DNA of 64,000 bases from an uncultured delta proteobacterium. GTDB taxonomy: Bacteria; Desulfobacterota; Desulfobacteria; Desulfobacterales; Desulfosalsimonadaceae. The position numbers and the translations under genes are program-made. The notes beneath the pieces were generated by a model. It searched no databases, was not told the DNA's origin, and saw nothing but the letters and a program-made list of their open reading frames with translations. Numbering within the stretch: position 1 is the first letter of the stretch; every line of letters begins with the position of its first letter. Location: positions 96,001 through 160,000 of the forward strand of contig CAWGYD010000008.1 of assembly GCA_963826785.1 (NCBI GenBank), in the 5' to 3' direction. This document shows, in pieces, positions 23,805-55,060 of the stretch.

Positions 23805-27377
<3,573 letters not shown>

Positions 27378-38848: not shown

Positions 38849-40859
38849 ATGACTCAAGACGCATCCGCACATGATCTGAAAAAGCGCTTCGCCGCACTGG
38901 AAGCCGAACTCGCCGCATGCCGGGACCGGGTTGCGGAACTGGAAACCAGCGAGCGCCAGTACCGCATGCTCATCGAAAACATCCCCGAAATGATCTGGAT
39001 CATGACGGCGGACAAGTTCAAGCTGACTTATCTGAATCCGTACGCCGAAAAAATGCTCGGCTATACGGTGGACGAGATTCTCAACAAATCGTTCCAGGAG
39101 ATCCTGACGCCGGCATCATTTAATTTCGCCGCTCGCTATTTCGTACAGGAACGGCAGAAATACATCGATGACATTCACCGGAAACCCCGGCCGCATATTT
39201 TCGAAATCGAATATATCCGCAAGGACGGATCCACCTTCTGGGTTGAAGTCAACGGGTGCCCCATTTTTGATGAACATCACCGGCTGATACGAATCATCGG
39301 GGTTTCACGGGATATTTCAGATCGGGTGGAAGCGCGGAAGGCGTTGAAAAAAAGCGAGGAAAAGTACCGGACCCTCTTTGAAGATTCAAGAGACACCATT
39401 TATATCACCACCCGGGACGGTCTTTTTGTCGACATCAATCCGGCGGGCCTCGATCTCTTCGGCTACACCCGGAAGGAGATCATCGGCACGGATGTCCGAA
39501 ACATCTACCTGGACGCCGCAGAGCGGAATACCTTCACGGCGGCCATCGAAGAAGCCGGTTTCGTGCGCGATTATGAAATCCAGTTCAAGAAAAAGGACGG
39601 GGTCCCCATCGATTGTCTGCTCACGTCCACACTCTGGCTCGGAGATGACGGCGCCATCCTGGGATATCAAGGGGTGATGCGGGATATCACCTCCCAGAAG
39701 CGGATCATCCGTCAGCTTCAGCAGATCCAGAAAATGGAGGCCATCGGCACCCTTGCCGGCGGCATTGCTCACAACTTCAACAATATCTTGATGACCATCC
39801 AGGGAAATACCTCCCTGATGTTGATGAAAACCGATCCCGATCACCCCCATTACCCGAAACTCAAAATTATCGAGCAGCATATCCAGTTCGGTGCGGATTT
39901 GAGCCGGCAGCTGCTCGGTTTCGCCCGGGGAGAGCAGTCGGAATCCAAGAAGATCCGGCTGAACCTGCTGATCCAGATCAGCGCCAAGATGTTTGCCAGC
40001 ACCAAAAAAGGAAATATCGGTCCACACCCGCTTCGAAAAAGAACTCTGGCCGGTAATTGCCGATCCGGGCCAGATGGAACAGGTATTTCTCAACCTGCTG
40101 GTCAATGCCTGGCAGGCCATGCCGGACGGGGGCGAGGTCCATATCGAGACAGAAAACCTGACCTTAAACCCGCACCAGATTTCCATGTACCGGCTGCCGC
40201 CGGGGCGCTATGTCAAAATCGCGTTCACCGATACCGGAATCGGGATGGATGAACGGACCCGGGAAAAAATTTTCGAACCCTTTTTCACCACCAAGGAACA
40301 GGGCCACGGCACCGGTCTCGGGCTGACCACCGTATACGGGATCATTCAGAGCCATGGGGGCTATATCGCCGTCTACAGCGAACCGGCCAAGGGAAGCACA
40401 TTCTCTATTTACCTGCCGGCTGCCGAAGATTTGGTGAAAGTGGAAAAGCCCGCACCTCCCATTCTCATCAAAGGAAATGAATCCGTTTTGATAATCGATG
40501 ATGAAACCATGATCATCGATACCGCACAGACCATGCTGGCCGAGTTGGGATACACCGTTTACACCGCGGACAGCGGGAAAAAAGGCATAGAGGCCTTTCT
40601 CAATCTTGCGGAGCAGGTCGACCTGGTGATCTTAGATATGATCATGCCCCACATGAGCGGCAATGAGACCTTTGAACGCTTGAAAACCATCGACCCGGAA
40701 GTGAAGGTGCTGCTGTCCAGCGGATATGGTTTGAACGGGCAGGCATCGGTCCTGATGGAAAAAGGATGCCGGGGGTTTATTCAAAAGCCCTTTACGATCC
40801 GGGAACTCTCCAGAAAAGTAAGAGAGGTGCTGGAGAGCGCCCCGGTGGAAATGTCATAA
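38849..40859 (+). pseudogene. PAS-PAS hybrid sensor histidine kinase/receiver, frameshifted at A6 run 40004-40009
   Basis: The HisKA (AHNFNN) is in one frame. The HATPase (NAWQA, DTGIG, GTGLGL) and REC are in the +1 frame. Removing one A gives FASTKKEISV. Confidence 0.8.
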
Positions 40860-42087: not shown

Positions 42088-42179
42088 TTGGTGGGTTTCT
42101 TCAGAGCCTGCTTATAACCGGAAGCGTACACTTTATCAAGCAGGAATGGTTGGCGGGGAAGAACCATGAAAAATCAAGA

Positions 42180-42579
42180 ATACCTCAAATTCTGTAGCTA
42201 TCGCAGCTGATTGAGCACGCTTTGTTGATGCATCACAGATCAGGTAATTTCCCTGATCGGATTTATGTGACCCTGCTTACCCCCAAATATTTTAAAGACA
42301 AACAGGGGCTGTTTGCTGAACGGAATTACTGGGGGAAATTTGAAAAGTATTTCTGATTTGGCAGAACTCAAAGCTGATTTAGAACTCTATCCCCTTCCCT
42401 TTCTTAACCACAGCATAGAAACCCTCTTGGGACGAGTAAATTCGCTAATTTTGCGATGGGTAACTTTTGAAGAACTGCTCAGTCTGCCTAACCGGGTAAG
42501 CCACAACGTCCCTGGAAAATACATTCGAAATTGGTACCAGATCTTTAATGAAATAGGTATGGGATTTTATTATGAATGA
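42180..42579 (+). pseudogene. Degraded gene remnant at the left island edge
   Basis: Protein-like frame 42198-42356 (SQLIEHALL..IYVTLLTPKYF..) is preceded by TAG and continues after a frameshift (SDLAELK..LRWVTFEELL). No intact 5' part. Confidence 0.4.
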
Positions 42580-42682
42580 ATATTAAGTTAATGATTTTAT
42601 AAATTTTAGCTAAATTGCTTTACTTCAAATAAACGCTGATTTTTTTGTCGGTAATTTATCTTCTGATCAAAATGGATAGAAA

Positions 42683-43597
42683 TCAAAAATTGCTGAAAGA
42701 GGATTTATTCACGATTTCCCAAGCCGGCTGTTCAATTCTAACGCTAATTTTTTTTAAATCAAAAACAGGGACGGCAAAAATCTTTGCAAATTTTGGATGA
42801 TAATAAACATAGGATGCAAGATAGCTATGCATTCGTGAATCCAAATCATCCTTCATGTTATGGTTGCTTAACATTAATTTGAATGCTCCTTTGTGCTTAT
42901 CTGGAATATTCACATCTACAAACCAATAGTATAACTCACGATCCAACAATTCTCGTTGCCCCATTGCTATTACTATATATTTCTTACCCTTTTTCACTAT
43001 AAAAGAGAAATTACCATCAGCATCAGACTTGGCGGTTTGTTCTGATAGGGAAAGGATGCCCGAAATAATGGAGGACATTATTGAATCATGGTACTTTTCA
43101 AGTGAATCGATTTTAGCCAAGCAAGCCTCATATCTTGGTTTCAGCTCAATTCCTTTTTCGACAAGTATAGATTCAACAATTTGAAAATCTTCAAGTGCAC
43201 ATTTAAACTCTGCATCACCATGCGATGTTTTATAAATTTTCTTTAAGTTTTCATCAATAGTGGCATACTTTTCTAAAACTTGTTTCTTGTCTTTTAAAAC
43301 ATGTTCTGCAGCCAAGTAATCCGGCCAAAACTCATAATACGATTTATTCAGGTCATCAAATTCCTTTAATGTTTTTTCGCATTCCTTTTGATAAGTAATC
43401 GAATCTTTACATAGCTTCGTATCAAAATATGAATTTAATTTTTCTACCGATATAAGATGAACAGGTACAAGACCGAGTTTTATGTTTTGCCCCCCACCGG
43501 TCACGATAAACACGTTGCCTTTCAAAGTAATTTCATTATTACCGCATCCAATTAGAAAGACAACCACTGCCCAAATAGTTATAAAACGAAAAAACAT
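42683..43597 (-). CDS. Hypothetical lipoprotein (beta-sandwich split by helical insert)
   Basis: Lipobox FLIGC; LKGNVFIVT..; AKSDADGNFSF; central helical region. Confidence 0.7.
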   Translation of the reverse strand: MFFRFITIWAVVVFLIGCGNNEITLKGNVFIVTGGGQNIKLGLVPVHLISVEKLNSYFDTKLCKDSITYQKECEKTLKEFDDLNKSYYEFWPDYLAAEHVLKDKKQVLEKYATIDENLKKIYKTSHGDAEFKCALEDFQIVESILVEKGIELKPRYEACLAKIDSLEKYHDSIMSSIISGILSLSEQTAKSDADGNFSFIVKKGKKYIVIAMGQRELLDRELYYWFVDVNIPDKHKGAFKLMLSNHNMKDDLDSRMHSYLASYVYYHPKFAKIFAVPVFDLKKISVRIEQPAWEIVNKSSFSNF

Positions 43598-43699
43598 ATT
43601 GCATTCCTCACAATCCGGTTGTTATTTTCGATTCATAATAAAAAATCTAATGATTATTCGCAATAGGATATTATTTATAACAATGCCCGGCGATATCAA

Positions 43700-44746
43700 A
43701 TGAATAAAATTATTAAATTAACGGCCATCATATTAATGGTTCTTGCAAGTAGCTCTTATGCTTTTCAAATAGAAACACGAGAACAAATCGTGGAAGATGC
43801 TGTTAAATTTTGTCCTCCGGACTTAAGAACTTTCTTAATGCCGAATATTTCAATTTTGAAAGGCAAAATGTCTTTTGCATCGCATATGCAGCGGCCTATT
43901 GATTCACTTTTACTAAAAGAAATATCGACATCATTAATAGAGGAAATAAAAAGCGGGACTGATTATAACTATAATACGATAAGCAAATTTGGATTGGTTG
44001 CCTTGTTCATTACCGAAGCCATAAATCCATATTTTTCGGCAAATAGCATATCTCTTTCAAATAATAGAGCCAGACAGGTTTCGTATAAGGGTATCATCGT
44101 TATCTATGACGGTTACCAACCTGTCCCAGACCCTGAATTTAAATTCAAATCCCTTACAGATAAATACCAGGACAGTTTGGGTTATATAAAACCTTCTTTA
44201 TTAGATTCAGCTTACAATGATGCAGTTAATGAAGTTTCAGATTTCTTCATTTCTATATGGCAAATGGCCGGGAAGCCTGTAAATGATTTAGTCTCAACCG
44301 GCTTCACGATTGATCACCGCTCGGGACGATTATTACAGGCCAATATTTCAAATCAAAAGAGAACTGAACCTACAGACGTTCAAGTCGATAAGGACGTATC
44401 TAATCCCAAGGGTACTTACTGGCAAGTATACCAAAATGCAGTTGATGCTTCAAGTAACCATGATTGGAATGGATGGGAAGCTCAAATGAGAATGATTAAT
44501 AGAGAAACTGATTTCGCGTTGCCAGAGGATTTCTGGCAAAATTATCATAGAGCAATAAAATCAATAAATAAAGGAGATTGGCTTTCTTTCAAAGAATACA
44601 TGGAAAAGATGGATCAGGAAATCGGACTGGATTCATCCAGTGCATTTTACAACGCATACGATAAAAGTCTCAAAGCTTTATCAAATCGGGATTGGCGGGA
44701 GTACGAATCACAATTCAGCCAAATGGAAGGGCTATTGGGGAATTAA
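43700..44746 (+). CDS. Secreted helical protein with three C-terminal ~38-aa repeats
   Basis: Signal peptide (SSSYA) and repeats of the form (Y/F)(W/Y)xxYxx(A/S)xxxxxxxDW. Confidence 0.7.
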   Translation: MNKIIKLTAIILMVLASSSYAFQIETREQIVEDAVKFCPPDLRTFLMPNISILKGKMSFASHMQRPIDSLLLKEISTSLIEEIKSGTDYNYNTISKFGLVALFITEAINPYFSANSISLSNNRARQVSYKGIIVIYDGYQPVPDPEFKFKSLTDKYQDSLGYIKPSLLDSAYNDAVNEVSDFFISIWQMAGKPVNDLVSTGFTIDHRSGRLLQANISNQKRTEPTDVQVDKDVSNPKGTYWQVYQNAVDASSNHDWNGWEAQMRMINRETDFALPEDFWQNYHRAIKSINKGDWLSFKEYMEKMDQEIGLDSSSAFYNAYDKSLKALSNRDWREYESQFSQMEGLLGN

Positions 44747-44751
44747 TTTAG

Positions 44752-45411
44752 ATGATGTATCACTTTAAACCACCAATTACTTGGAATCCCGTTAGAATTG
44801 CCTTTTTATTTGGTTTATTTTTTATATTTACAGAATCCATCGTATCGGCGATTAATAGTGATGAGATTTTGATTAAAGGATTTATAAATAGATATGGGAA
44901 ATACCCTATTATACAAGTTATTTTAGCATATAATGATAATGATATCACCCTCGATGTCAGGGGTAAACGGATAATTTACAGTGGGAATCCTGATGAAAGT
45001 TATGTCAATGTCCATACGATACTTTGTGATTTGAAAACGATTCATCTTACACCTAAGAAGCTAGAAAAATTAATTAATGACCGAATTAAACCCAATACTT
45101 TGGTTTTATTTAAACAGATGTCTCGTAATCTAAAAAGTGAAGCATTAGAGAGCCGAAAAGATAGAGAAAAAGGGCTTATCGATTCCTTTAAAAGAGAAGA
45201 CAATATAAGTATGATGATAGAAGAGGAGAAGAAACGACTGCTAAATAAAAAAGAGAAGCTGGAAGAAGAAATTAAAAAGGAGGCATTACTCATTAAACAG
45301 GAAGATCAACTCCGAAAAGAAAAAATCAGGCTCATAGAAAGGAAGCAGGTCATCGAAGAAGAAATCAAAACTGAAGCAGCAAGAATAAGAAGAGAAAATT
45401 CATTTAATTGA
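44752..45411 (+). CDS. Membrane-anchored or secreted protein with Lys/Glu coiled coil
   Basis: N-terminal hydrophobic segment and C-terminal EEEIKKEA/EEEIKTEA repeats. Starts 5 nt after the previous ORF. Confidence 0.6.
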   Translation: MMYHFKPPITWNPVRIAFLFGLFFIFTESIVSAINSDEILIKGFINRYGKYPIIQVILAYNDNDITLDVRGKRIIYSGNPDESYVNVHTILCDLKTIHLTPKKLEKLINDRIKPNTLVLFKQMSRNLKSEALESRKDREKGLIDSFKREDNISMMIEEEKKRLLNKKEKLEEEIKKEALLIKQEDQLRKEKIRLIERKQVIEEEIKTEAARIRRENSFN

Positions 45412-45603
45412 TGTGATGCCCTTCGCAGGGCCGTATTGCGCTGATAAAATTCCGTCCTAATCTTCCTGAATATTTCTATCTTCTCAGAAAAGCCGAAATT
45501 CCCCTCATTAAATTTTCTTGATGAACTTTTTTTATTACCATATGTTAATGCATTATCATTATTTGATTTTTGAAATTTTTTCACGCGAACAGGGGTCAAA
45601 GAT

Positions 45604-47502
45604 ATGGCTGAAAAATTCTGGCAATTAATTCCTGTGAATAGTGAACTTCAACCATTCATAATTAATTCATCTCCCGCTATATTAGGAAGATCTGCTTCCA
45701 AATGTGATATTTTAATCGATGATGCGTCAATCGCAGATTCACACATTCAATTTGTTCTGAATAAAACTGGTTTACAAATATATGATTTAAATAGCGAAAA
45801 CGGAATAGCCATTCAAGGGGAAAAGGTAAAAAATAGAATCGAAATCAAAGCCAGAAGTGCAAAGCAAGGATTATCGCTTGTCGCCGGAAAAATAGAATTT
45901 ATTTTAAAATATGGTGAAATATCCACTGATACTTACACTTCTCCCCTGAAAAGGGAAGATGAATGGTTTTATAATCATAAAGGGAAAAAGTACGGACCAT
46001 TGAAAAAGGAGGAATTGTTCAAAGCCGCTCAAAATCATCTGTTATTTCCGACTGATGATGTATGGAATTCGAGCTTTGATTATCAATTAAAAGCTTTCGA
46101 AATTAAAGGGCTATTAGAAAAGGGTTATTCTCCAATTATAGATGATGACAAGGAAATTATATGTCCATATTGCTGGAATTCATTTAACCTTGAAGATATT
46201 CGTTTTGTATCTTGCCATCCAGAGTTGTCTGGAGATTCTGTCTTAGGTGAAAGTGAATTCCAAAGATTTATCCCTTTTCATTTCAGACCGAAAGGAAAGG
46301 CATTAGATTCTAAGGGAATGCTTTGCCATGAAAAAGCATGCCCGATTTGCCACATTGCCATCCCGTCTGATCTGCTTATTAAAACCCCTCCCATTTTTAT
46401 TTCATTGGTTGGAGTCCCGGCAAGCGGAAAATCATATTGTTTGGCCGCTACCACATGGAATCTGAGAACCATCTTTAACCAGCATTTCAATATGGATTTC
46501 GTTGATGTCGATCCCCTAATAAATCATTGGATTACTGAATATGAATCATTGCTTTTCAAAAATGAAAAAATTTTGAAAACACCATTGGAGGCATCTCATG
46601 TCTATCGGCAGGCAAAAATAAATGGCGTAACGGCGATCCTTCCGCAACCATGCATGTTCTTTCTTAAATCTTATGAAGATATCCAGGCCGCCAATAATGT
46701 TAACCGGGTGCTTGTATTGTACGATAATGCAGGTGAGCATTTTCAGCCGGGATACGATTCTGCAATTACTCCCGTCACCAGGCATTTAAGCCGTGCCGGC
46801 GGGATCATTTTTCTTTTCGATCCATCAGCCGATCCGCGAATCGCAAAGTTTATACCGGAAAACGCAGATATCCCAAAAGGAACTGACATTCAAAAACAAA
46901 CAGTGCTGTTAAATGAGATGATCGTTCGGCTTAAAAATCATTTGGGCCTTACTGCAGAGGAACGCTACCAAAAACCGATTGTTTTCGCGATTTCAAAATC
47001 GGATTTACTTCATCAATTCAGCGAACTCCATGATAATGATGAGCCATTAACCATTAAATCCAATACGAATATCAATGCCCTGAATCTATCTAAGATTGCG
47101 AGGATTTCATACTGTACAAGAGACTTTTTGAAAAAATATGTCCCTGAAATCGTCAACCTGATTGAATCGTTTGCCGAAATGATAATTTATCTACCCATAA
47201 GTGCTCTTGGTCATGAGCCAAAAGATTTGGGACATGAGAATAAAAATATAAAGCCCTCTTTCATTGAAATCCCCATTTTATATATTTTATCCAAGCTCGG
47301 ATTCATTCCTTCTGCAAAAACATTAGATGAAATCCTTCCAGTTAATCAATTTGAGGTCAACAACCGGTATTTTGAATTGAAAGACCCGGTTTCAGGTAAA
47401 ATTCTGCAAGTACCGCTTATATATGCCGGACATACCCTCTATTATCCTGGAACCAGAACCAAAATTCGGATACCCGAACTTCCGCATGTCAAATGTTTAT
47501 AG
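45604..47502 (+). CDS. FHA + GYF_2-like + Zn-ribbon + TRAFAC-class GTPase
   Basis: FHA (LGRS..SH..DLNSENG); WFY..GKKYGP..DDVW; CPYC and CPIC; G1 GVPASGKS, G3 DNAG, G4 SKSD, G5 SALG. Confidence 0.8.
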   Translation: MAEKFWQLIPVNSELQPFIINSSPAILGRSASKCDILIDDASIADSHIQFVLNKTGLQIYDLNSENGIAIQGEKVKNRIEIKARSAKQGLSLVAGKIEFILKYGEISTDTYTSPLKREDEWFYNHKGKKYGPLKKEELFKAAQNHLLFPTDDVWNSSFDYQLKAFEIKGLLEKGYSPIIDDDKEIICPYCWNSFNLEDIRFVSCHPELSGDSVLGESEFQRFIPFHFRPKGKALDSKGMLCHEKACPICHIAIPSDLLIKTPPIFISLVGVPASGKSYCLAATTWNLRTIFNQHFNMDFVDVDPLINHWITEYESLLFKNEKILKTPLEASHVYRQAKINGVTAILPQPCMFFLKSYEDIQAANNVNRVLVLYDNAGEHFQPGYDSAITPVTRHLSRAGGIIFLFDPSADPRIAKFIPENADIPKGTDIQKQTVLLNEMIVRLKNHLGLTAEERYQKPIVFAISKSDLLHQFSELHDNDEPLTIKSNTNINALNLSKIARISYCTRDFLKKYVPEIVNLIESFAEMIIYLPISALGHEPKDLGHENKNIKPSFIEIPILYILSKLGFIPSAKTLDEILPVNQFEVNNRYFELKDPVSGKILQVPLIYAGHTLYYPGTRTKIRIPELPHVKCL

Positions 47503-47554
47503 ATAATATTTTAACTTTAGAAATTGCGCTGCTCTAAAATGGCAAGGGGAAGAA

Positions 47555-49573
47555 ATGATTTTTGAGTTAATTTATACTTCCGTCCCGAAAGGCTTAAAAC
47601 CTGGTTCAAGCGGATACACGACAGTCGCCTGTACCGAGGGAATGCCGGCAAAGTATGTCAGCCTTTGTGAATCCCTTAGCGGGTATATTCATTTATATGC
47701 AGACCTGAACGATCCGAATTACCGATTAAATCCTGTCGCATACAGCCATTATAAATTTTCGGTAAACAATGAAAAAATATCCGTCCTCTCCCGGGTTTCT
47801 TCTTCAGGGGCTGATTATAGCGGCAGGGCCAATAAAATTGCCCATCATATTGTTGTCCTTCAGGACGAACAACATTTGATTGGACCCGCCGCACTCATGA
47901 ATCAGCCCGGATTATTTGTAGATGAATGGAATCGAGAACCTCAGATATTGCCCAAAGGCCGCATTGCTTTTCCAGAAAACGAAATAAAATCCTATTTTGC
48001 AGAGGAATGGGAAAATGTTTTGGGGGATGCGGGTGCTGCCGGAGTGCTTGCACAGAAAATCTTAGATAATGATAAAACCCCGGCATTCATTCTGTTCGAA
48101 CCTGGAACGAACCTGCTGCAACTGATCATCGAAGCAATGGATCTTCTTCCTCTGGAGCAACAATGGGCGACGACCTTCAACACGTATTTTGATCCCACCA
48201 TAAAACCTATTGATTCTGAATGTATCGTGCGATGCTGTGTCCGGAATTCAAAGCACTTGAATTCATTTCCAGATGCATTGGTAATGGATTTACCGCAAAA
48301 AAAGATGATAGGGAAAATACCGAAAGATGCAGAAATTTACGAGTGTGCGCGAACTGGAAATCCGCCCTCCTGGCTGCGGCCCAAGAAAGACACCGATACA
48401 GAGACGTTTATCGAAGGACTGTGGGAGTCTGATCAAAGGTCACCATCTCCTCGCAGGGCTTCGCCAATAAGTCAGAAACATCCAACTTCAATTATAGAAC
48501 CCCCCACAAAGAAGAAATCTGACTTTGAATTTTATTTGTGGTCAGCTGTAATCATTCTTTTATTTTTGATTTTTATCTACTTTCCAATCAAAAATTGGTT
48601 AGCTCCGGAATCGAACAAGAATCAACCTAACGAAAACGGGCAAATTGATTCTACGCAAAATGAAGAGAAACCAGTTAATAGTGGTGAAAATGAGACATTA
48701 ATGCAGTATGCTCCTCCCCCAATGAACACCGGACAAGTAAATACGGCTCCTCAAAGGAATGAAATGAAAGTTACCATTCTTTACGCAGAAAAAAAAAATG
48801 ATAATGACGAAAATATAAAGAGTAATGAAGTCATAATTGATAGACGAATTGAATTCACACAGGTAAAACAAGTTTTTCTTTATGATAATGAAAGGATTAT
48901 TGCAGCGAATATAGAGGAAAGGCCATCCGGCGGAGGAAACCAACACCTCATATCTACAGGGGAGTCTAAAAGCAGTAAGAGCAGAATTTGGGTAATAAAT
49001 GGGAAAACACATATCTCATTAATGGACCCCTTTTTCGCAATTTTTATCAAAATATCAGATGATGGTCCTTTTCTAATATGGATTAAGCCTATTAAAATTA
49101 AGTTTGAAAATTCAACTATCGAAGAAATTACGACTGTGAAAAAATTTATCAAAGTTTTGCATGATCATAAGATTCTTAAAGCTGAAGCTTATAACGAAAA
49201 TTCAGAATTGGAAAAGCAAGATTTAGGCAATCAAACATGGGATCAATTATATGAAAACTTGAAAAAAATATATGATTCGGTAACCTGTGAAATAATACAA
49301 GAGTTAAATCAAGAGATAAATGGTTATTGTAGGAATCGGGAACCTGAGAATAAGGAATTATGCCAATACGTAAACGGTATAGAGGAAATTAAATCTGAAG
49401 ATAAGAATAAAGATTTATCCAAGACTATTCAAAAGATAAAGTACTTAAAGATTGATAATGATGATATCAAAAGTTTGATAAATAAATTTGAAAATAGGAG
49501 AATTTATTGCGAACTATTTCCAAGACATGAACAAAGAGAGATATCTATGCAATTAACTGAGATTATAAAATGA
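47555..49573 (+). CDS. GAP1-N2-like (GTPase-associated protein 1) single-pass membrane protein
   Basis: ELIYTSVPKGLKPGSSGYTTVA, DYSGRANKIAHH and LLP..QWATTFNTY motifs; Pro-rich linker; TM at about aa 325-345. Confidence 0.7.
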   Translation: MIFELIYTSVPKGLKPGSSGYTTVACTEGMPAKYVSLCESLSGYIHLYADLNDPNYRLNPVAYSHYKFSVNNEKISVLSRVSSSGADYSGRANKIAHHIVVLQDEQHLIGPAALMNQPGLFVDEWNREPQILPKGRIAFPENEIKSYFAEEWENVLGDAGAAGVLAQKILDNDKTPAFILFEPGTNLLQLIIEAMDLLPLEQQWATTFNTYFDPTIKPIDSECIVRCCVRNSKHLNSFPDALVMDLPQKKMIGKIPKDAEIYECARTGNPPSWLRPKKDTDTETFIEGLWESDQRSPSPRRASPISQKHPTSIIEPPTKKKSDFEFYLWSAVIILLFLIFIYFPIKNWLAPESNKNQPNENGQIDSTQNEEKPVNSGENETLMQYAPPPMNTGQVNTAPQRNEMKVTILYAEKKNDNDENIKSNEVIIDRRIEFTQVKQVFLYDNERIIAANIEERPSGGGNQHLISTGESKSSKSRIWVINGKTHISLMDPFFAIFIKISDDGPFLIWIKPIKIKFENSTIEEITTVKKFIKVLHDHKILKAEAYNENSELEKQDLGNQTWDQLYENLKKIYDSVTCEIIQELNQEINGYCRNREPENKELCQYVNGIEEIKSEDKNKDLSKTIQKIKYLKIDNDDIKSLINKFENRRIYCELFPRHEQREISMQLTEIIK

Positions 49574-49584
49574 ACAGGTGAAAA

Positions 49585-52479
49585 ATGTTCCCCCCTCCTG
49601 ACCTGATAAGGCAAATTCAAAAAATTTTGGATTCGGAAGACCTCTCTATCCCTGAATACAAGGAGGTCGCCCGGCAATTTCAGGAACAATATAATCTTGC
49701 CAAAGCGAGGATACTGAAATGTAAGTCTCTTATTTCAGAACGAAGGCGTGAAGATGCAGTAGCGGAAGCACTGAAGGACCCTGATTTAAGAGAGATAAGC
49801 AGCAACTTGCATTTCAAAGAACTATTAAAATGGAAAAATATTTGCCAGGAACAGAACTGGCCCATACCGGAATTGTATGAATCTCAATTTAATGCGGCCT
49901 TACAGGATGTTTTTTCTTCAGACAATAAAATTTTTCCGTTGCTCACGAAATATAGGCGGGCTGCCCTTAAAAATGACTTCAGACGCTCTGTTCAGATTTT
50001 AAGACAAATAAAAAAGACAGACTGGTCCAACAAAAAATGGGATGAGGATCTCAAAGAATTTGAAAAAAGCCGAATGGCGGAGATTCGCAATCATTTCGTT
50101 TCGGCAGTTCGCAATCGTGATCATGACTATATCGCCTATTTGCTAATGGAATTAGAAGAAGAATGGTCAATTCCACGGGACGATCTTTTGTATAAAGAAA
50201 TAAAGGAGCATGTTTTAAATCACAAGAAAAAGGAGGTGATGCGGAACGGAAAAGAAATCTGCGCCAGAATGGTAAAAGCCTATAGGGCCAAGGATTTCTC
50301 TGCTGTCGAAAAAACAATCGAAGAGTATGAAAGTTTAAGAAAAGATCCGCTTTTTGATAATCAAGAAATGGATCGAGCATATATCAAAATTTCTTTTTGG
50401 ATTGAAACGGTAAAGAAAGAAAATGAATTAAAGGAGGCGGCTGCAAGGGAAAATGAAAGCTGGAGCGAGGCGATTTTTATACTTGAGCAAAATTTGAAAA
50501 TGAAAAATGTCAAAAATGTAATGAATTGCCTGAAAGAATTAGAGCAGTACTCTGGTAAAATAATACCGCCGGAGCTTGGAGCCGAAGCTGATGCACTGAT
50601 TAAGAAATGGAAATTTAAACGGAAGGTCACCTTCAGTCTGGTTATTTTAGTGTTCATTTTGTGTGCCGGCTTAGCGTTGGCGGTGACGAGATATCATCAA
50701 ATTCAGGACTCAACCCTGGCTGATTTGGAATCGGCATACAAAGCGGAAGACCTTCCACATTTTTTAGAAATATTAAAGAATTCGGAGAATACGCATCGAT
50801 TTACCTACAATTCAAATGAAATACAAAAATGGGCTTCCAAGATACCGGATCTCACGGCCATAGTTGCAAAAAAGCGAGCTATTTTTGAAGAGACGATTAC
50901 ACGAGTTAAGCAAATGCAAGATAATGATTTTTATGGCGATGAAGAAAAGGTTGAGCAGTTGCTTCATGCCGCAGAAATAAATGCTGTGGATAATGCGGAT
51001 AAAGGAATAATAGCGTCTATAAAAGAAGCGTGGGAAATTCACAAAGATCTGATTATCAATCAAAATGACAGGAATCTCAATAAGATTCTAAATGCAGTTT
51101 CTATCGAAATCGAGAAAGCAGAGACCTCCCTGGACCATATTCATTATATTGAGGCAAACGGGTACCTTTTTGAAACTGAGAAATTATTGATCCAAGCAGC
51201 TGAGATTGAGAATGTTTCGCCAAAGCTTACAGATGACATGAAAAAAATTCGGAACAAATATGAAAATCTAAGGTCTGACCTGCATCCGAAAATCAAGCAG
51301 CTTGAAATTATTTCAGGGGCACCAACTTTATCTGAATATTTAACTGAACTTAAAGCATATGTAACCGCCCTACCCGACGATCCGCTAAGCAGGTTAATGA
51401 ATTCGATAATTTCAGATGAAAAAAATTATTATGACCTTATTTCCATGCAATCTTATAATCCTGCAAACCCTTTCTGGTATCCAGTTGCTGAAATTTTCTC
51501 CGAGATCAAAGATAATATTTCTACGGTCAAAAAGGATATCACGAATCTTCAAGCCGATAAATGGTATACGGATTTATGGGAATACCCTTTGATTCCCGCC
51601 TTTAATAAAGGCAATAAGAAGGTATTCTCCGAGGGCAACCTTGTTAAAAAAAACAACGATGATGGCGTTGGGTGTTTTACAGGGTTTATGTATGTTTCGT
51701 CTTCCAGTGATTCGGAACCGGAATTCGTTCAAGGAGAACTCATCACAGCATATTTTGATACAACTAAGAAGGTTGAAAAATTAAGTCATTGCAAAATTTT
51801 ATATAATGATTTCGAAAAAATTTTGGAAGCCCCTCCAGATCTGTTTGCCGAAACAATGTTAACCCAAATGCAAAACCTCCTTAATGAAGATCTGCATCCT
51901 CTCTTAAAAGTTTCGGTCATGAAAAACTTGGTTCGCTCATTTACGGATTTAATGGAAGATAATGCGATGGAGGATTGGGAAGATGTATTGTCAGATTTAA
52001 ATGGTTTCGAATCTCCTGTCCATTGGCTCTGTTTTCTAAATCCAGCTCTTGAAAGTGGTAATAAGCGCGCCAAACGCATTCTGGATAAACATTTTGAGAA
52101 AACAAACATTATCTCGACACAAAAAGCTAAACTTGAGCTGATCCGAAAATGCTTGAAACGCTCGATTAAATGGGTTGGCAGCGCCTCATTTGAAGGGAAT
52201 CAAGAAATTTTATGGAAACAATCCAATATCCCCAGCGAAACATGGGTAGTTCGGGCATCCAGTAAGCCCAGTATTTATCTTGCACAGGAAATTAAAAATG
52301 AAAAATTAGTCTTTGATTATGTGAGTTATCTTCCTGGTGAACCGGTTTTTGCCCCGGATGATATGAAGACTTCCCGTGAAATTCTGAAAGAGGTTTTTTC
52401 GAAAAATGAATTATCTTTCGAAAATCATCTATCCGTTCCATCAATATGGCCTATTAATCTAAAGGCCAATGATTTGTAA
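49585..52479 (+). CDS. Large alpha-helical single-pass membrane protein
   Basis: 964 aa, helical/coiled-coil character, one TM at about aa 347-367 preceded by KKWKFKRK. Confidence 0.7.
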   Translation: MFPPPDLIRQIQKILDSEDLSIPEYKEVARQFQEQYNLAKARILKCKSLISERRREDAVAEALKDPDLREISSNLHFKELLKWKNICQEQNWPIPELYESQFNAALQDVFSSDNKIFPLLTKYRRAALKNDFRRSVQILRQIKKTDWSNKKWDEDLKEFEKSRMAEIRNHFVSAVRNRDHDYIAYLLMELEEEWSIPRDDLLYKEIKEHVLNHKKKEVMRNGKEICARMVKAYRAKDFSAVEKTIEEYESLRKDPLFDNQEMDRAYIKISFWIETVKKENELKEAAARENESWSEAIFILEQNLKMKNVKNVMNCLKELEQYSGKIIPPELGAEADALIKKWKFKRKVTFSLVILVFILCAGLALAVTRYHQIQDSTLADLESAYKAEDLPHFLEILKNSENTHRFTYNSNEIQKWASKIPDLTAIVAKKRAIFEETITRVKQMQDNDFYGDEEKVEQLLHAAEINAVDNADKGIIASIKEAWEIHKDLIINQNDRNLNKILNAVSIEIEKAETSLDHIHYIEANGYLFETEKLLIQAAEIENVSPKLTDDMKKIRNKYENLRSDLHPKIKQLEIISGAPTLSEYLTELKAYVTALPDDPLSRLMNSIISDEKNYYDLISMQSYNPANPFWYPVAEIFSEIKDNISTVKKDITNLQADKWYTDLWEYPLIPAFNKGNKKVFSEGNLVKKNNDDGVGCFTGFMYVSSSSDSEPEFVQGELITAYFDTTKKVEKLSHCKILYNDFEKILEAPPDLFAETMLTQMQNLLNEDLHPLLKVSVMKNLVRSFTDLMEDNAMEDWEDVLSDLNGFESPVHWLCFLNPALESGNKRAKRILDKHFEKTNIISTQKAKLELIRKCLKRSIKWVGSASFEGNQEILWKQSNIPSETWVVRASSKPSIYLAQEIKNEKLVFDYVSYLPGEPVFAPDDMKTSREILKEVFSKNELSFENHLSVPSIWPINLKANDL

Positions 52480-52517
52480 TTACTTTAAGATCACCCATAA
52501 TTACAAAAGAGAAAAAA

Positions 52518-53378
52518 ATGACTGATATCCATAGAAAGCAATTGGTGAAAATTCTCGAATGGCAGAGAATGGACATCGAAGGCCGTTTGAAGTTTAAAGG
52601 TGGAAAATACACAGACGTTAATTTTTCTTTATCACTTCTATTCGGGCTGATCTTGTTTTCTATTTTCTATGGGACGGTGATGGCGACTAAATATCCTCCC
52701 ATATATGATTTTTTCTTAAACAGAAGTATAACACAGCCATTCACAATGTTCTTTTCCTGTTGGGCGATATCAATTCTCTTTTTTAAATGGCAAAAGCTCC
52801 TTTTCCAAGAAAAAGCACTGGGCTTGATGATTGTTCCCCACTCACATGATTTCGAGCTTAATGCAGCATCGGCAAAGGATATTCTTGAAAGAATGCATGG
52901 AATTGTTGACAAAGTCGAACACTTTACCCTTTTAAATCGGATTGAAAGGGCATTATCCAATTTGCACAATATCGGCATGATCACCGATGTGTCAGAAGTA
53001 TTGAGATCTCAGGCCGAAAATGATGAAGACCATATGGAATCCAGTTATGCCTTGGTGAGGGGTTTTATATGGGCCATCCCTGTACTTGGGTTTGTCGGCA
53101 CAGTTTTGGGATTGTCAAAAGCTATCGGCAATTTTGGTGAAGTTCTTGGCTCTGCAGGAAATTTTGAAAACTTGAAAATCTCACTCCAAAGTGTCACTTC
53201 AGGATTGTCAGTTGCATTTGATACGACATTATTTGCACTGCTTGCAGCTTTAACAATTCAATTGATTTTAATCACCTTGAAAAAAAGGGAAGAGGATTTT
53301 TTGGATGCATGCAAAGAATATTGCCATGCAAATATTATAAGTAAATTGAGGCTTTCTAATTCCTCTGTCATAAACTAA
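52518..53378 (+). CDS. MotA/TolQ/ExbB proton-channel family protein
   Basis: Two N-terminal TMs, then the AIPVLGFVGTVLGL and GLSVAFDTTLFAL TM pair. Confidence 0.88.
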   Translation: MTDIHRKQLVKILEWQRMDIEGRLKFKGGKYTDVNFSLSLLFGLILFSIFYGTVMATKYPPIYDFFLNRSITQPFTMFFSCWAISILFFKWQKLLFQEKALGLMIVPHSHDFELNAASAKDILERMHGIVDKVEHFTLLNRIERALSNLHNIGMITDVSEVLRSQAENDEDHMESSYALVRGFIWAIPVLGFVGTVLGLSKAIGNFGEVLGSAGNFENLKISLQSVTSGLSVAFDTTLFALLAALTIQLILITLKKREEDFLDACKEYCHANIISKLRLSNSSVIN

Positions 53379-53388
53379 TGCCAGATAA

Positions 53389-54072
53389 ATGAGAAAGAGA
53401 CGAGCGCATAAAAAAGATTTACCAATAAGTTTTTTTTCATTTCAGGATATTATAACTTGCCTTGTGGGCATTTTAATAATTCTGACGTTGATCATGGGAA
53501 TTGAAATCCCCAATTCAGTATCGCTTTCGTGCGAAAGCATGCAAACTGATATTTCTCAAACCTCGGATAAGGAACAGGATAACAATGCGAATATATTCAA
53601 TGAGGCCAGAAAAAAGATCAGAATTGATAATTTGAAATCAAAATTAAATCAGATTGAATTGGATTACACCCGCGAAAAAGTTGTTTGGGAATTGTTAAAT
53701 AAGGAATTATTTGAACTGAAGGATAAATATCAAGATATATTGACCGACAGAAGAATTTTCCTCATCCCAGGTGAGACTAACGATAAAATACCTCTGATCG
53801 TGGTATGCTCGTTATCCAGCATAGCCGTAAGTCATTTAAACAATGCAACTGCATTAGCTACTTTCACAACCGATCGAGAAGGAATCAATAACTTTTTCGC
53901 ATATGTATTAAATAGGGAAAAGGATAATGAATTCTTTGTAATTATGATTAAACCTTCAGGAACCGATTACGCCATGGATCTCGTTTATTTTATACAAAAT
54001 GCGGGTTTTGAGGTTGGTTATGATGCTCTTGAAGAGGACTATTCCCTGGCTCTAAAGAATGACCATGAGTAA
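53389..54072 (+). CDS. ExbD/TolR-like partner subunit 1
   Basis: Basic N-terminus, TM FSFQDIITCLVGILIIL with Asp, coiled coil, alpha/beta C-terminal domain (IMIKPSG..GFEVGY). Confidence 0.6.
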   Translation: MRKRRAHKKDLPISFFSFQDIITCLVGILIILTLIMGIEIPNSVSLSCESMQTDISQTSDKEQDNNANIFNEARKKIRIDNLKSKLNQIELDYTREKVVWELLNKELFELKDKYQDILTDRRIFLIPGETNDKIPLIVVCSLSSIAVSHLNNATALATFTTDREGINNFFAYVLNREKDNEFFVIMIKPSGTDYAMDLVYFIQNAGFEVGYDALEEDYSLALKNDHE

Positions 54073-54796
54073 AAGAGGTGAAGAGCATCCCAACAGTTTT
54101 GATCTGCTTCTTGATACGATTTGCAATGCCTTTGGAGGAATCATCCTCGTCTCCCTATTGATGTCCATCTTAATTTGCGCAGGAAGTAAGGAGGCGGATG
54201 AGAAGGCAACCGAATTGAGTCCTTCCCTACACTCAACCCCAAATAATGATCCGAAAAAGTTATCGTGCGAAATTGAAGATTTTAAAAAGAAAAGCGATGA
54301 TATTCTTTTATCAATCAATGCTCTCAAAAATCAAATCACGACACTAAATGAAGAAATCGCAATAAAAAAAGCGTCCAGATTAAGGCGCCTCCGCCTACCT
54401 CGCCTGCGGGAAGTGACAGGCAAAAGAACCATCGTCACAGCGATTTATAATGGTAAGTTTTATATATTCCACGATTTACAAGATAAAATTCACGAACATG
54501 ACAACTCTGATGCCCGTGTAATCGAAGATAAGGATAAGATAACAATTCGGCCGTTTAAAAACAGAGGGCAACCAATAATGGAAAATGCCGAAAATTCAGG
54601 AAAATTGAATGCGGCCCTCAAAAATCTTAATCCGTCCCATGAGTATATACTTTTTTGTGTTTATAAAGATTCATTTGCCGAATTCAACCATGTAAAAAAA
54701 CTTTTTGTAGATAAAGGATTTGATTACAATTGGATAATTTGCTCTGCCGATGAAGATATTAAACTCATGAAGGCGCAGCATGTGAATGTACAATAA
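54065..54796 (+). CDS. ExbD/TolR-like partner subunit 2
   Basis: TM FDLLLDTICNAFGGIILVSLL with Asp, coiled coil, C-terminal VYKDSF..GFDYNW. Overlaps the previous stop (ATGAGTAA). Confidence 0.6.
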   Translation: MSKRGEEHPNSFDLLLDTICNAFGGIILVSLLMSILICAGSKEADEKATELSPSLHSTPNNDPKKLSCEIEDFKKKSDDILLSINALKNQITTLNEEIAIKKASRLRRLRLPRLREVTGKRTIVTAIYNGKFYIFHDLQDKIHEHDNSDARVIEDKDKITIRPFKNRGQPIMENAENSGKLNAALKNLNPSHEYILFCVYKDSFAEFNHVKKLFVDKGFDYNWIICSADEDIKLMKAQHVNVQ

Positions 54797-55060
54797 AATT
54801 TGGCATTATCTAAAACCTGAAGACGCGGTTAATCAAAGTGAAGGCCAACCCCCGATTTTTAAAAATGGATTTAGGCAAGGCAATGACGTCTTGCCTCATC
54901 ATCATCGATGCAACGTCAGCCGATAAAAAGCAATTCATAGGAGCTCTTATCAGATAAGGACCATTCATCGACACCCCCACTTTTTACTGGCAACTCAACT
55001 GGCCCCATATGCCAAACGCGTCTTATGGCAATTCCTTGCATCGAGAGAAATGATGAAGTG

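Follow-up and report, generated by a model that had tools for sequence, protein, structure and literature searches.

A DO-GTPase/GAP1 operon carrying a MotA/TolQ-type motor on a low-GC island of an uncultured delta proteobacterium

Operon layout and the GTPase/GAP1 switch

We analyzed a stretch of 64,000 nucleotides (nt), hereafter the window, from the genome of an uncultured delta proteobacterium of the family Desulfosalsimonadaceae (assembly GCA_963826785.1, contig CAWGYD010000008.1, positions 96,001–160,000) and concentrated on a six-gene operon at window positions 45604–54796, which encodes a DO-GTPase, a GAP1 protein, a membrane-spanning protein (gene 3) and a MotA/TolQ/ExbB-type motor (genes 4–6). 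All six genes are real and intact, and each occurs in one copy in the host genome. The original prediction for this DNA, made from the sequence alone, had placed six co-oriented genes here and coupled a GTPase/GAP1 module to an ion motor. The gene positions and the intergenic gaps of genes 1–5 (52, 11, 38, and 10 nt) were confirmed, and the 8-nt overlap of genes 5 and 6 holds with ATG 54065, the probable start of gene 6 (14 nt when counted from the first ATG). Lengths below are in amino acids (aa); GC denotes guanine plus cytosine and ORF an open reading frame.

45604–47502, + strand: gene 1, 632 aa, FHA-GYF_2-zinc ribbon-DO-GTPase, soluble, cytoplasmic switch
47555–49573, + strand: gene 2, 672 aa, GAP1-N2/GAP1-M, linker, single membrane helix, outer part
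49585–52479, + strand: gene 3, 964 aa, third core component, membrane-spanning, proposed switch-to-machine transducer
52518–53378, + strand: gene 4, 286 aa, MotA/TolQ/ExbB-type A subunit
53389–54072, + strand: gene 5, 227 aa, TolR/ExbD-like B subunit 1
54059–54796, + strand: gene 6, 245 aa, B subunit 2, paralog of gene 5
about 42100–55000, no strand: low-GC island drawn from the GC profile, boundaries approximate; it also contains three unrelated upstream ORFs

The same gene order recurs in records of Desulfamplus, Verrucomicrobiota, Lentisphaeria, Kiritimatiellia and Planctomycetota, and because it does so in several phyla the arrangement is not a product of chance.

The foreseen domain content was recovered by Pfam (FHA, GYF_2, DO-GTPase2, GAP1-N2, and MotA_ExbB), together with a membrane Asp in both genes 5 and 6. 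Gene 1 matched FHA (residues 26–82, E 1.2e-9) and DO-GTPase2 (PF19993, E 1e-6) above cut-off, and GYF_2 (121–167, E 8.3e-5) under cut-off in the protein scan and above it in a second scan. The zinc ribbon is formed by CxxC pairs at 187–190 and 246–249, of which C246 and C249 are invariant and C187 and C190 nearly invariant in the alignment. The GTPase motifs are intact (G1 GVPASGKS, G3 YDNAGE, G4 SKSD). GK[ST] of G1 is kept in 160/167 labelled GTPase ORFs; YD[NS]AGE is also found in 160/167, a count that is not independent since the loci were fetched by the pattern YD[NS]AGEHF. The Walker B Glu, E378, is invariant in all 55 aligned GTPase homologs. The consensus Ser of FHA domains binds phosphothreonine. 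Gene 1 has Ala44 at this position, where most homologs and the consensus have Ser, so phosphopeptide sensing by this FHA copy is doubtful, which weakens the peptide-sensing role originally proposed for the module. No kinase is present among the operon genes.

Gene 2 matched GAP1-N2 (PF20013, residues 1–133, E 1.1e-22), followed by GAP1-M (PF20014, 151–235, E 7.1e-5) with 23.4 bits, just short of the cut-off of 24; both families are above cut-off in most homologs. GAP1-C was not matched in gene 2 or 55 homologs by Pfam, which could miss a diverged copy. A single membrane helix spans residues 327–345. Column conservation is 0.46–0.65 over residues 1–240 compared with 0.23–0.30 after residue 289, and the C-terminal outer part gave no Pfam family in 55/55 long homologs and no usable Atlas match; across the alignment, the extracytoplasmic part is hypervariable. 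By their domain content, genes 1 and 2 are a GAP1-N2-type DO-GTPase pair, as in Kaur 2020 (PMC7159879).

Gene 3, the constant third component

A single-sequence search of genome contigs found no relatives, and the loci were retrieved by an alignment-based search. This gave 160 GTPase-homolog loci (the best 80 per collection, with 10 kb flanks), a set biased to close relatives, which reduced to 136 clusters at 90% identity. GAP1 lies after the GTPase in 114 of 120 informative de-duplicated loci, and three of the six misses (L029, L035, and L112) do have GAP1 matches and are ORF-picking artefacts. Gene 3 lies after GAP1 in all 77 informative de-duplicated loci.

No Pfam family was found for gene 3 when four gene 3 proteins were scanned one by one. 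Its structural model (61 sequences; mean pLDDT [predicted score in the local distance difference test] 88.1, predicted template modelling score 0.55) consists of a predicted all-helical cytoplasmic domain (residues 1–343), a single membrane helix (348–366) with basic residues just before it, and a long, mostly helical outer part with two small beta domains (664–720 and 861–924). The protein is conserved along its whole length. Foldseek and VIA searches with the whole model gave generic helical-bundle matches only. In the Atlas, the N-terminus matched only unnamed clusters of the Planctomycetota–Verrucomicrobiota–Chlamydiota (PVC) group (0.82–0.83), which is a lead only.

A three-chain model of GTPase residues 183–572, GAP1 1–268 and gene 3 1–330 scored 0.69 against 0.02 for the best of three controls. 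Of 157 solved complexes, 116 attain the complex-score mark, as do 2 of 215 mismatched pairs; these counts are only a rough guide for a three-chain job. Contact agreement across the runs was at least 92% and partner pLDDT at least 82. In the model, GTPase residues 195–233, located between the two CxxC pairs, contact gene 3 residues 120–162, including the nearly invariant R124 and W152. The model supports docking of the GTPase, by its zinc-ribbon region, to gene 3's cytoplasmic domain. A contact between gene 3 and GAP1 is not listed in the complex model, which is no evidence against such a contact.

Judged by this linkage, the core of the system is GTPase, GAP1 and gene 3, and gene 3 is its overlooked part. 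The original prediction had the motor act through two single-pass proteins, but the two differ in kind: gene 3 is conserved and docks on the GTPase in the model, and gene 2 has a hypervariable outer part.

The motor, a MotA–gene 3 fusion and alternative modules

Gene 4 matched MotA_ExbB (PF01618) above cut-off with E 3.1e-11. Across 59 homologs it has four membrane segments, not three, starting at residues 38, 71, 179, and 236, with T195, T236, and T237 invariant (59/59). An N-terminal WxxxDIExR motif is conserved, and the protein lacks a long tail, ending about 30 residues past the last membrane helix. It is the best-conserved gene of the operon, at 59–64% to L015, L018, and L024 compared with 39–43% for the GTPase. 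Aligned to solved structures, it gave only a weak TolQ match (E 0.06).

Genes 5 and 6 each have one hydrophobic segment and matched no meaningful Pfam family. The membrane helix of gene 5 carries D20 within FSFQD, invariant in 143/143 sequences, and that of gene 6 carries its Asp within LLLDT(I/M)CN, invariant in 14/14. The gene 5 model predicts a helical stalk of about 70 residues (48–119) followed by a TolR-like C-terminal domain, and gene 6 likewise has a helical stalk. The C-terminal fold of gene 5 matched TolR 5by4 with Z 8.0 and a root-mean-square deviation of 3.0 over 84 aligned residues (Foldseek E 2.4e-3), tied with unrelated pelota/RNase H-like folds; by sequence, solved structures gave coiled coils. 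The gene 5 profile retrieved 985 clusters at E ≤ 1e-30, indicating a large family, a count that probably includes sister motors. The gene 5 and gene 6 families are paralogous (hhalign 99.2%, E 1.5e-19).

In MotAB, ExbBD and TolQR, such Thr and Asp residues mark an active ion-driven 5:2 motor. The motor residues, among them the membrane Asp of the original prediction, are intact, and the reading of this motor as an inactive decoy is rejected because the catalytic residues are invariant. Gene 4 and the gene 5/6 pair would form a 5:1:1 assembly through which ions presumably flow.

A tailed sister clade of gene 4 (P0241–P0248, L190–L192) has a long C-terminal helical tail and, in several members, an N-terminal zinc ribbon. 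In a quick gene 4 tree, which has long branches and was used only for this grouping and for the nesting of the fusions described below, seven of the eight tailed proteins group with L190–L192 (support 93). In L190–L192, gene 5/6-like genes follow and no GTPase lies nearby.

Two Desulfamplus genomes encode a fusion of the motor subunit with gene 3.

L188, 6033–9437, – strand: 1134 aa, gene 4 domain plus C-terminal two-thirds of gene 3
L189, 8860–11970, + strand: 1036 aa, gene 4 domain plus C-terminal two-thirds of gene 3

In both, a gene 4 domain (about residues 5–294) continues in frame into a gene 3 portion that begins shortly ahead of the membrane helix and runs through to the C-terminus, leaving out the part modelled on the GTPase. 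The order is the reverse of that in the operon, so the fusion is not a read-through product. The topology is consistent, as the four-helix A subunit ends inside, where the pre-membrane helices of gene 3 lie. The two fusions are 33% identical to each other and are nested among the Desulfamplus gene 4 copies. Each is a second, stand-alone ORF in a genome that also keeps the ordinary genes. This fusion is the best evidence that gene 3 works next to the motor.

A neighbourhood survey, which the original prediction had set as its own refutation test, found the linkage of GTPase/GAP1 to the motor conserved in other genomes. The constant unit is nevertheless GTPase, GAP1 and gene 3, with the motor exchangeable. 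Module classes were counted on 56 informative de-duplicated loci (36 + 16 + 4). The 36 loci with a long GAP1 and a long gene 3 have gene 4 within the fetched flank in 25 cases and lack it there in 11. The 16 loci with a short soluble GAP1 and a long gene 3 have a PilM-domain membrane protein in 16/16 and the motor in 0/16, and the remaining four have a short gene 3. In the loci inspected, the PilM-domain protein is followed by two single-pass proteins; these companions matched no pilus family, and the labels PilN/O/P rest on position and topology only. A PilB/GspE-type ATPase lies downstream in L071, L084, and L151. GYF proteins (GYF-trypsin, GYF-PrsW, GYF-RDD, and GYF-DUF4190) are inserted between genes 3 and 4 in relatives.

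Several variants were seen among these loci. PilM-type operons occur in Lentisphaeria (L053:16009–19448, L038, L055, L122, L107, L033, and others), with an AAA ATPase after the operon in L038 and L122. Where gene 3 is short (about 377 aa, made up of the cytoplasmic domain and the membrane helix; L084:12578–15886, L151:5733–8841, and L123), GYF proteins follow, and one related trio (L161) contains a GYF-vWA gene.

Looking from the motor side, 41 of 76 genomes had a gene 4 match, which was close (E < 1e-60) in 34. Twenty-seven of these 34 are linked, 19 on the GTPase contig and eight beside gene 3; of the other 15 close gene 4 genomes, 14 were fetched, with the gene apart from gene 3 in three and on short contigs in another three. 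A less biased sample was provided by 13 of the 17 GTPase matches among 301 evenly drawn planctomycete genomes (two had already been seen and two had little flank), in which the three-gene core is present in 13/13 and the motor trio in 5/13, two of the 13 loci being incomplete. In Lentisphaeria loci chosen for lower score and long contigs, the trio was found in 7/7, one of them without a GAP1 match. The Desulfamplus/Desulfobacterales genomes have kept the GTPase and genes 3–6 in 5/5 cases despite an interrupted or split operon. In a split operon, that of the closest named GTPase relative among the loci listed (L013:1085–2959, 59%), the 6 kb downstream is without GAP1, and a separate contig (L173) carries gene 3 and the motor trio. 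On these counts, the motor is conserved without being obligatory: what lies downstream of the core is exchangeable and may be the motor, a PilM-type trio, a PilB-type ATPase or none of these. As many core loci have no motor nearby, the switch would work without a motor or use one in trans.

The same counts bear on the alternative that two independent cassettes, the GTPase-GAP1-gene 3 unit and a three-gene PVC motor, travel together uncoupled. Many cores without an adjoining motor, the tailed sister motors of L190–L192 without a nearby GTPase, and the split operon of some Desulfamplus genomes would all fit it. On the other hand, several phyla share a fixed gene order in which the gaps measure tens of bases, most close gene 4 orthologs are linked (27/34), the motor and the PilM module are mutually exclusive, a MotA–gene 3 fusion exists, and GYF genes are inserted between genes 3 and 4. 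We regard uncoupled travel as very improbable.

Relation to known systems and proposed function

In the text of PMC7159879 (Kaur, Burroughs, Iyer, and Aravind, eLife 2020), all DO-GTPase/GAP1 systems are classed as predicted conflict systems, and planctomycete members are coupled to GYF-pair proteins fused to trypsin or transmembrane (TM) regions. Like the GAP1-N2 systems described there, the present locus has a TRAFAC GTPase with a Walker B Glu and a zinc ribbon, then GAP1-N2/GAP1-M fused to a membrane helix, and many of its relatives resemble the planctomycete members in carrying GYF proteins with trypsin or TM regions, here between genes 3 and 4. Unlike the systems of that text, it has a single GTPase bearing its own FHA and GYF, a helical membrane protein in third place, and a MotA/TolR-type motor or a PilM-type trio downstream. 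Those systems also include an associated FNIII-repeat protein; no FNIII match was obtained with Pfam in nine island proteins, in which the beta domains of gene 3 and the outer part of gene 2 were scanned as parts of the whole chains.

The terms MotA, ExbB, and TolQ have no occurrence in the main text and two supplements of PMC7159879 (Figure 6 and the Figure 1 source data lay outside the check) or in the available text of preprints mentioning DO-GTPases. A full-text search, mostly without subscription journals, turned up no publication in which a DO-GTPase or GAP1 is connected with a MotA-type motor. The link therefore seems undescribed. The earlier suggestion of an undescribed system thus stands for the motor link and not for the switch half or the planctomycete GYF-linked subtype, which are in print in the text of PMC7159879. 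The present analysis adds gene 3 as a constant partner with a modelled GTPase interface, the MotA–gene 3 fusion, and the exchange of motor and PilM module.

The text available for PMC11761067 describes the Myxococcus Agl-Glt machinery as MglA, ZnR/GYF/FHA domains and a heterodimeric AglR5-AglQ-AglS motor cooperating. The likeness to our locus lies in an A subunit of the pentamer type combined with two TolR-like B subunits that differ from each other (a heterodimer is suggested here by their paralogy), single-pass inner-membrane partners, GTPase control, and cytoplasmic FHA/GYF/zinc-ribbon domains; the GYF part of the GTPase alignment matched the GltJ/AgmX GYF structure 7z3c (E 3.9e-4). The locus differs in having a DO-GTPase instead of MglA, in carrying FHA/GYF/ZnR on the GTPase and not on transducers, in B subunits with long helical stalks, and in lacking a TonB-C-like domain. 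GltG/GltJ TonB-C-like transducers, Glt outer-membrane or adhesin genes and MglA/MglB were absent from the locus, to which this search was confined. By analogy, the system is built like Agl-Glt and is not a member of it.

With ExbB-ExbD-TonB and TolQ-TolR-TolA, the locus shares the MotA_ExbB domain with conserved Thr, the membrane Asp and the TolR-like C-terminal fold; unlike them, it has a four-segment A subunit, two unlike stalked B subunits and no TonB or TolA. Gene 4 scored 20.8 bits with TolQ against a cut-off of 221. TonB_C, TolA, TolB, and Pal were not matched in the locus or in 55 GAP1 homologs. TonB and TonB-dependent receptors are absent from the locus, as originally stated, but the host genome encodes both elsewhere: its only other MotA/ExbB gene lies in a complete ExbB-ExbD-TonB set, and five TonB-dependent receptor matches were found. 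These observations bear on a reading in which the trio energizes envelope maintenance or uptake, acting like Tol or Ton on outer-membrane proteins of the host, while the GTPase module only positions or regulates it. The TolR-like fold of gene 5, the host receptors with a single other MotA/ExbB gene, and the related PVC motors with heterologous TolR pairs described in the main text of PMC12204202 would agree with this; the complete ExbB-ExbD-TonB set of the host, the missing TonB/Tol partners and a distribution too patchy for a housekeeping role speak against it. Such a function is improbable in our view. The PVC motors of PMC12204202, described in its main text as a tolQ-like gene with a heterologous tolR-like pair of unknown function, differ from the present locus in having a TPR gene and an SHLS-bearing vWA transducer, and that main text has no occurrence of GTPase.

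With Zorya, the locus has in common a MotA-type motor on a mobile island and weak ZorA/ZorB profile matches over the membrane parts (gene 4 scored 18.7 with ZorA against a cut-off of 100). It differs from Zorya in that gene 4 lacks the long tail of ZorA and that a scan of nine proteins found neither an OmpA-type domain, as on ZorB, nor ZorC/D/E. The OmpA-type domain of the MotB subunit of flagellar stators was likewise not found in the locus. Membership in Zorya, Ton, Tol or the flagellar system was rejected because the defining parts are absent from the locus; the original claim that the locus is in full none of the known motors (Ton, Tol, flagellar, Agl, Zorya) was thus upheld.

The island is about 13 kb long with a GC content of about 0.35–0.40, compared with 0.52–0.57 for the contigs. 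No tRNA, integrase or terminal repeat was found marking it, and scans for promoters (49 against 42.6 ± 5.8) and terminators (13 against 9.7 ± 3.2) were at chance level. Three ORFs in its upstream part (window 42683–45411) encode a 304-aa protein with a lipoprotein-like signal and proteins of 348 and 219 aa with N-terminal hydrophobic segments; they have no Pfam family and no homolog in the 160 related loci and are therefore not counted as parts of the system. A close ortholog of the GTPase or of gene 4 was found in none of 100 related genomes, whose matches were limited to the FHA level, a single distant GTPase locus and four MotA-type genes, also distant. Among 400 other genomes drawn from the phylum, none had gene 3. 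The GTPase occurs in 17 of the 301 evenly drawn planctomycete genomes and in 59 of 151 Lentisphaeria-class genomes. Because of the low GC and the missing close orthologs in relatives and phylum, the locus was most likely acquired horizontally. Cultured carriers of relatives are Desulfamplus magnetovallimortis (motor type) and Oligosphaera ethanolica (PilM type). No flagellin was found in the host genome, which is 88% complete.

Horizontal spread would also fit a defensive role. Here the same architecture would act against invaders (phage or predators), the motor and the variable GAP1 outer domain sensing a breach of the envelope in a Zorya-like manner and passing the signal to the GTPase inside; in loci with GYF-fused peptidases, these would be the effectors. 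Besides the conflict classification in the text of PMC7159879, the low-GC island, the patchy distribution (0/100, 0/400, and 17/301 above), the variable GYF inserts including peptidases between genes 3 and 4, and the ZorA-like long helical tail of the gene 4 sister clade are compatible with it. However, the locus contains no nuclease, toxin or pore-forming effector. PADLOC, a check suggested at the outset, returned only weak MotA-type matches on the locus (best E 1.8e-4). Among flanking ORFs of motor-type loci, 3/80 had a PADLOC match at E ≤ 1e-10, two of them via protease- or kinase-like models, a count that has no background control and may include shadow ORFs. Moreover, the motor gene is the most conserved part and not a variable or inactivated decoy, the GTPase is carried by a large share of Lentisphaeria-class genomes (59/151), the system is kept after operon break-up, and the alternative modules are of pilus type. 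Defence is not supported beyond the prediction of Kaur 2020, and we consider it rather unlikely.

To our knowledge, few outputs are known for ion-driven 5:2 motors, and Myxococcus gliding is the main known case of their direct control by a GTPase. In the present operon, such a motor is tied to a different GTPase family, a link that is found in several phyla, and the candidate transducer belongs to no known family. As far as its parts, intact catalytic motifs, conserved linkage and fusion can be read from sequence, the system is real and conserved; its function is a prediction. We put at about even odds (roughly 0.5) that it is a GTP-switched, envelope-spanning machine with gene 3 as transducer and surface contact as output. 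In this machine, the zinc-ribbon region of the DO-GTPase would dock on the cytoplasmic domain of gene 3, as modelled. GAP1, an inner-membrane-anchored protein whose outer domain varies, would set the state of the GTPase on a cue from outside. Gene 3 would cross the membrane beside a 5:1:1 motor of gene 4 and the gene 5/6 pair and relay either force or a signal of conformation outward to its long outer part, the role played by TonB, TolA or GltG; this transducer role is proposed because of the fusion, the gene order and the analogy. We infer the contact of gene 3 with the motor, the direction of control and the biological output. Surface contact would be the most likely output, in the form of adhesion, interaction between cells or the building of a surface structure, since in sister loci this three-gene switch is joined to PilM-type or PilB-type pilus machinery in place of the motor.

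Several observations weigh against the GTP-switched contact machine. No outer-membrane partner is encoded, and a distribution that is patchy and due to horizontal acquisition is no less in keeping with conflict systems. The motor is absent nearby in 11/36 long-GAP1 loci and in 6/11 informative planctomycete loci. PilM-linked genomes hold other PilM copies (3–5 matches each), so that the PilM module need not be the working pilus. Conservation at the modelled interface does not exceed background (p 0.38 on the GTPase side, 0.057 on the gene 3 side). The conserved His of the TonB/TolA kind is absent from the gene 3 membrane helix across the alignment, and the membrane helix of gene 2 contains no His. 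Finally, the fusion is probably one event (2 of 64 gene 4-like ORFs); eight longer homologs contained no further MotA–gene 3 fusion, and the fetched loci contained none besides L188 and L189. The fusion motor domain is also partly degenerate, with some ring threonines lost and both rows on long branches.

In a broader and more tentative proposal, the DO-GTPase, GAP1 and gene 3 would together make up a portable controller spanning the membrane, one that is unrelated to MglA/MglB and is coupled to various envelope engines: an AglRQS-like ion motor in one lineage, a PilM/N/O/P-like platform or a PilB-type ATPase in others. Gene 3 would then represent a new class of motor transducer under direct gating by a GTPase, distinct from TonB, TolA, GltG, and vWA. 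The DO-GTPase systems of PVC bacteria would be motility or contact machines and not immune systems. No DO-GTPase system with a tested function was found in the searchable literature; the compact six-gene version, with its catalytic residues named and its interface modelled, makes the conflict hypothesis directly testable.

Another uncharacterised motor was seen in relatives from the order of the host (L194:2170–13068 and L195), where a distant MotA-type gene is clustered with PEGA-FGE-sulfatase, FHA, TPR, and vWA-type genes and, in L194, a Ser/Thr kinase. Elsewhere in the window, positions 284–22873 hold a PEP-CTERM/exopolysaccharide-type region with a sugar transferase, Wzz, a polysaccharide export protein, a TPR protein, a sigma-54 two-component pair, a PEP-CTERM protein, a beta-barrel porin and a PKD/beta-helix protein. 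A PAS hybrid histidine kinase at 38849–40859 runs over two overlapping frames (38849–40252 and 39993–40859), which indicates a frameshift or a sequence error. A pyruvate:ferredoxin oxidoreductase at 23805–27371 is likewise divided into two ORFs (POR_N at 26568–27371, the rest at 23805–26546), either as a split gene or through a sequence error.

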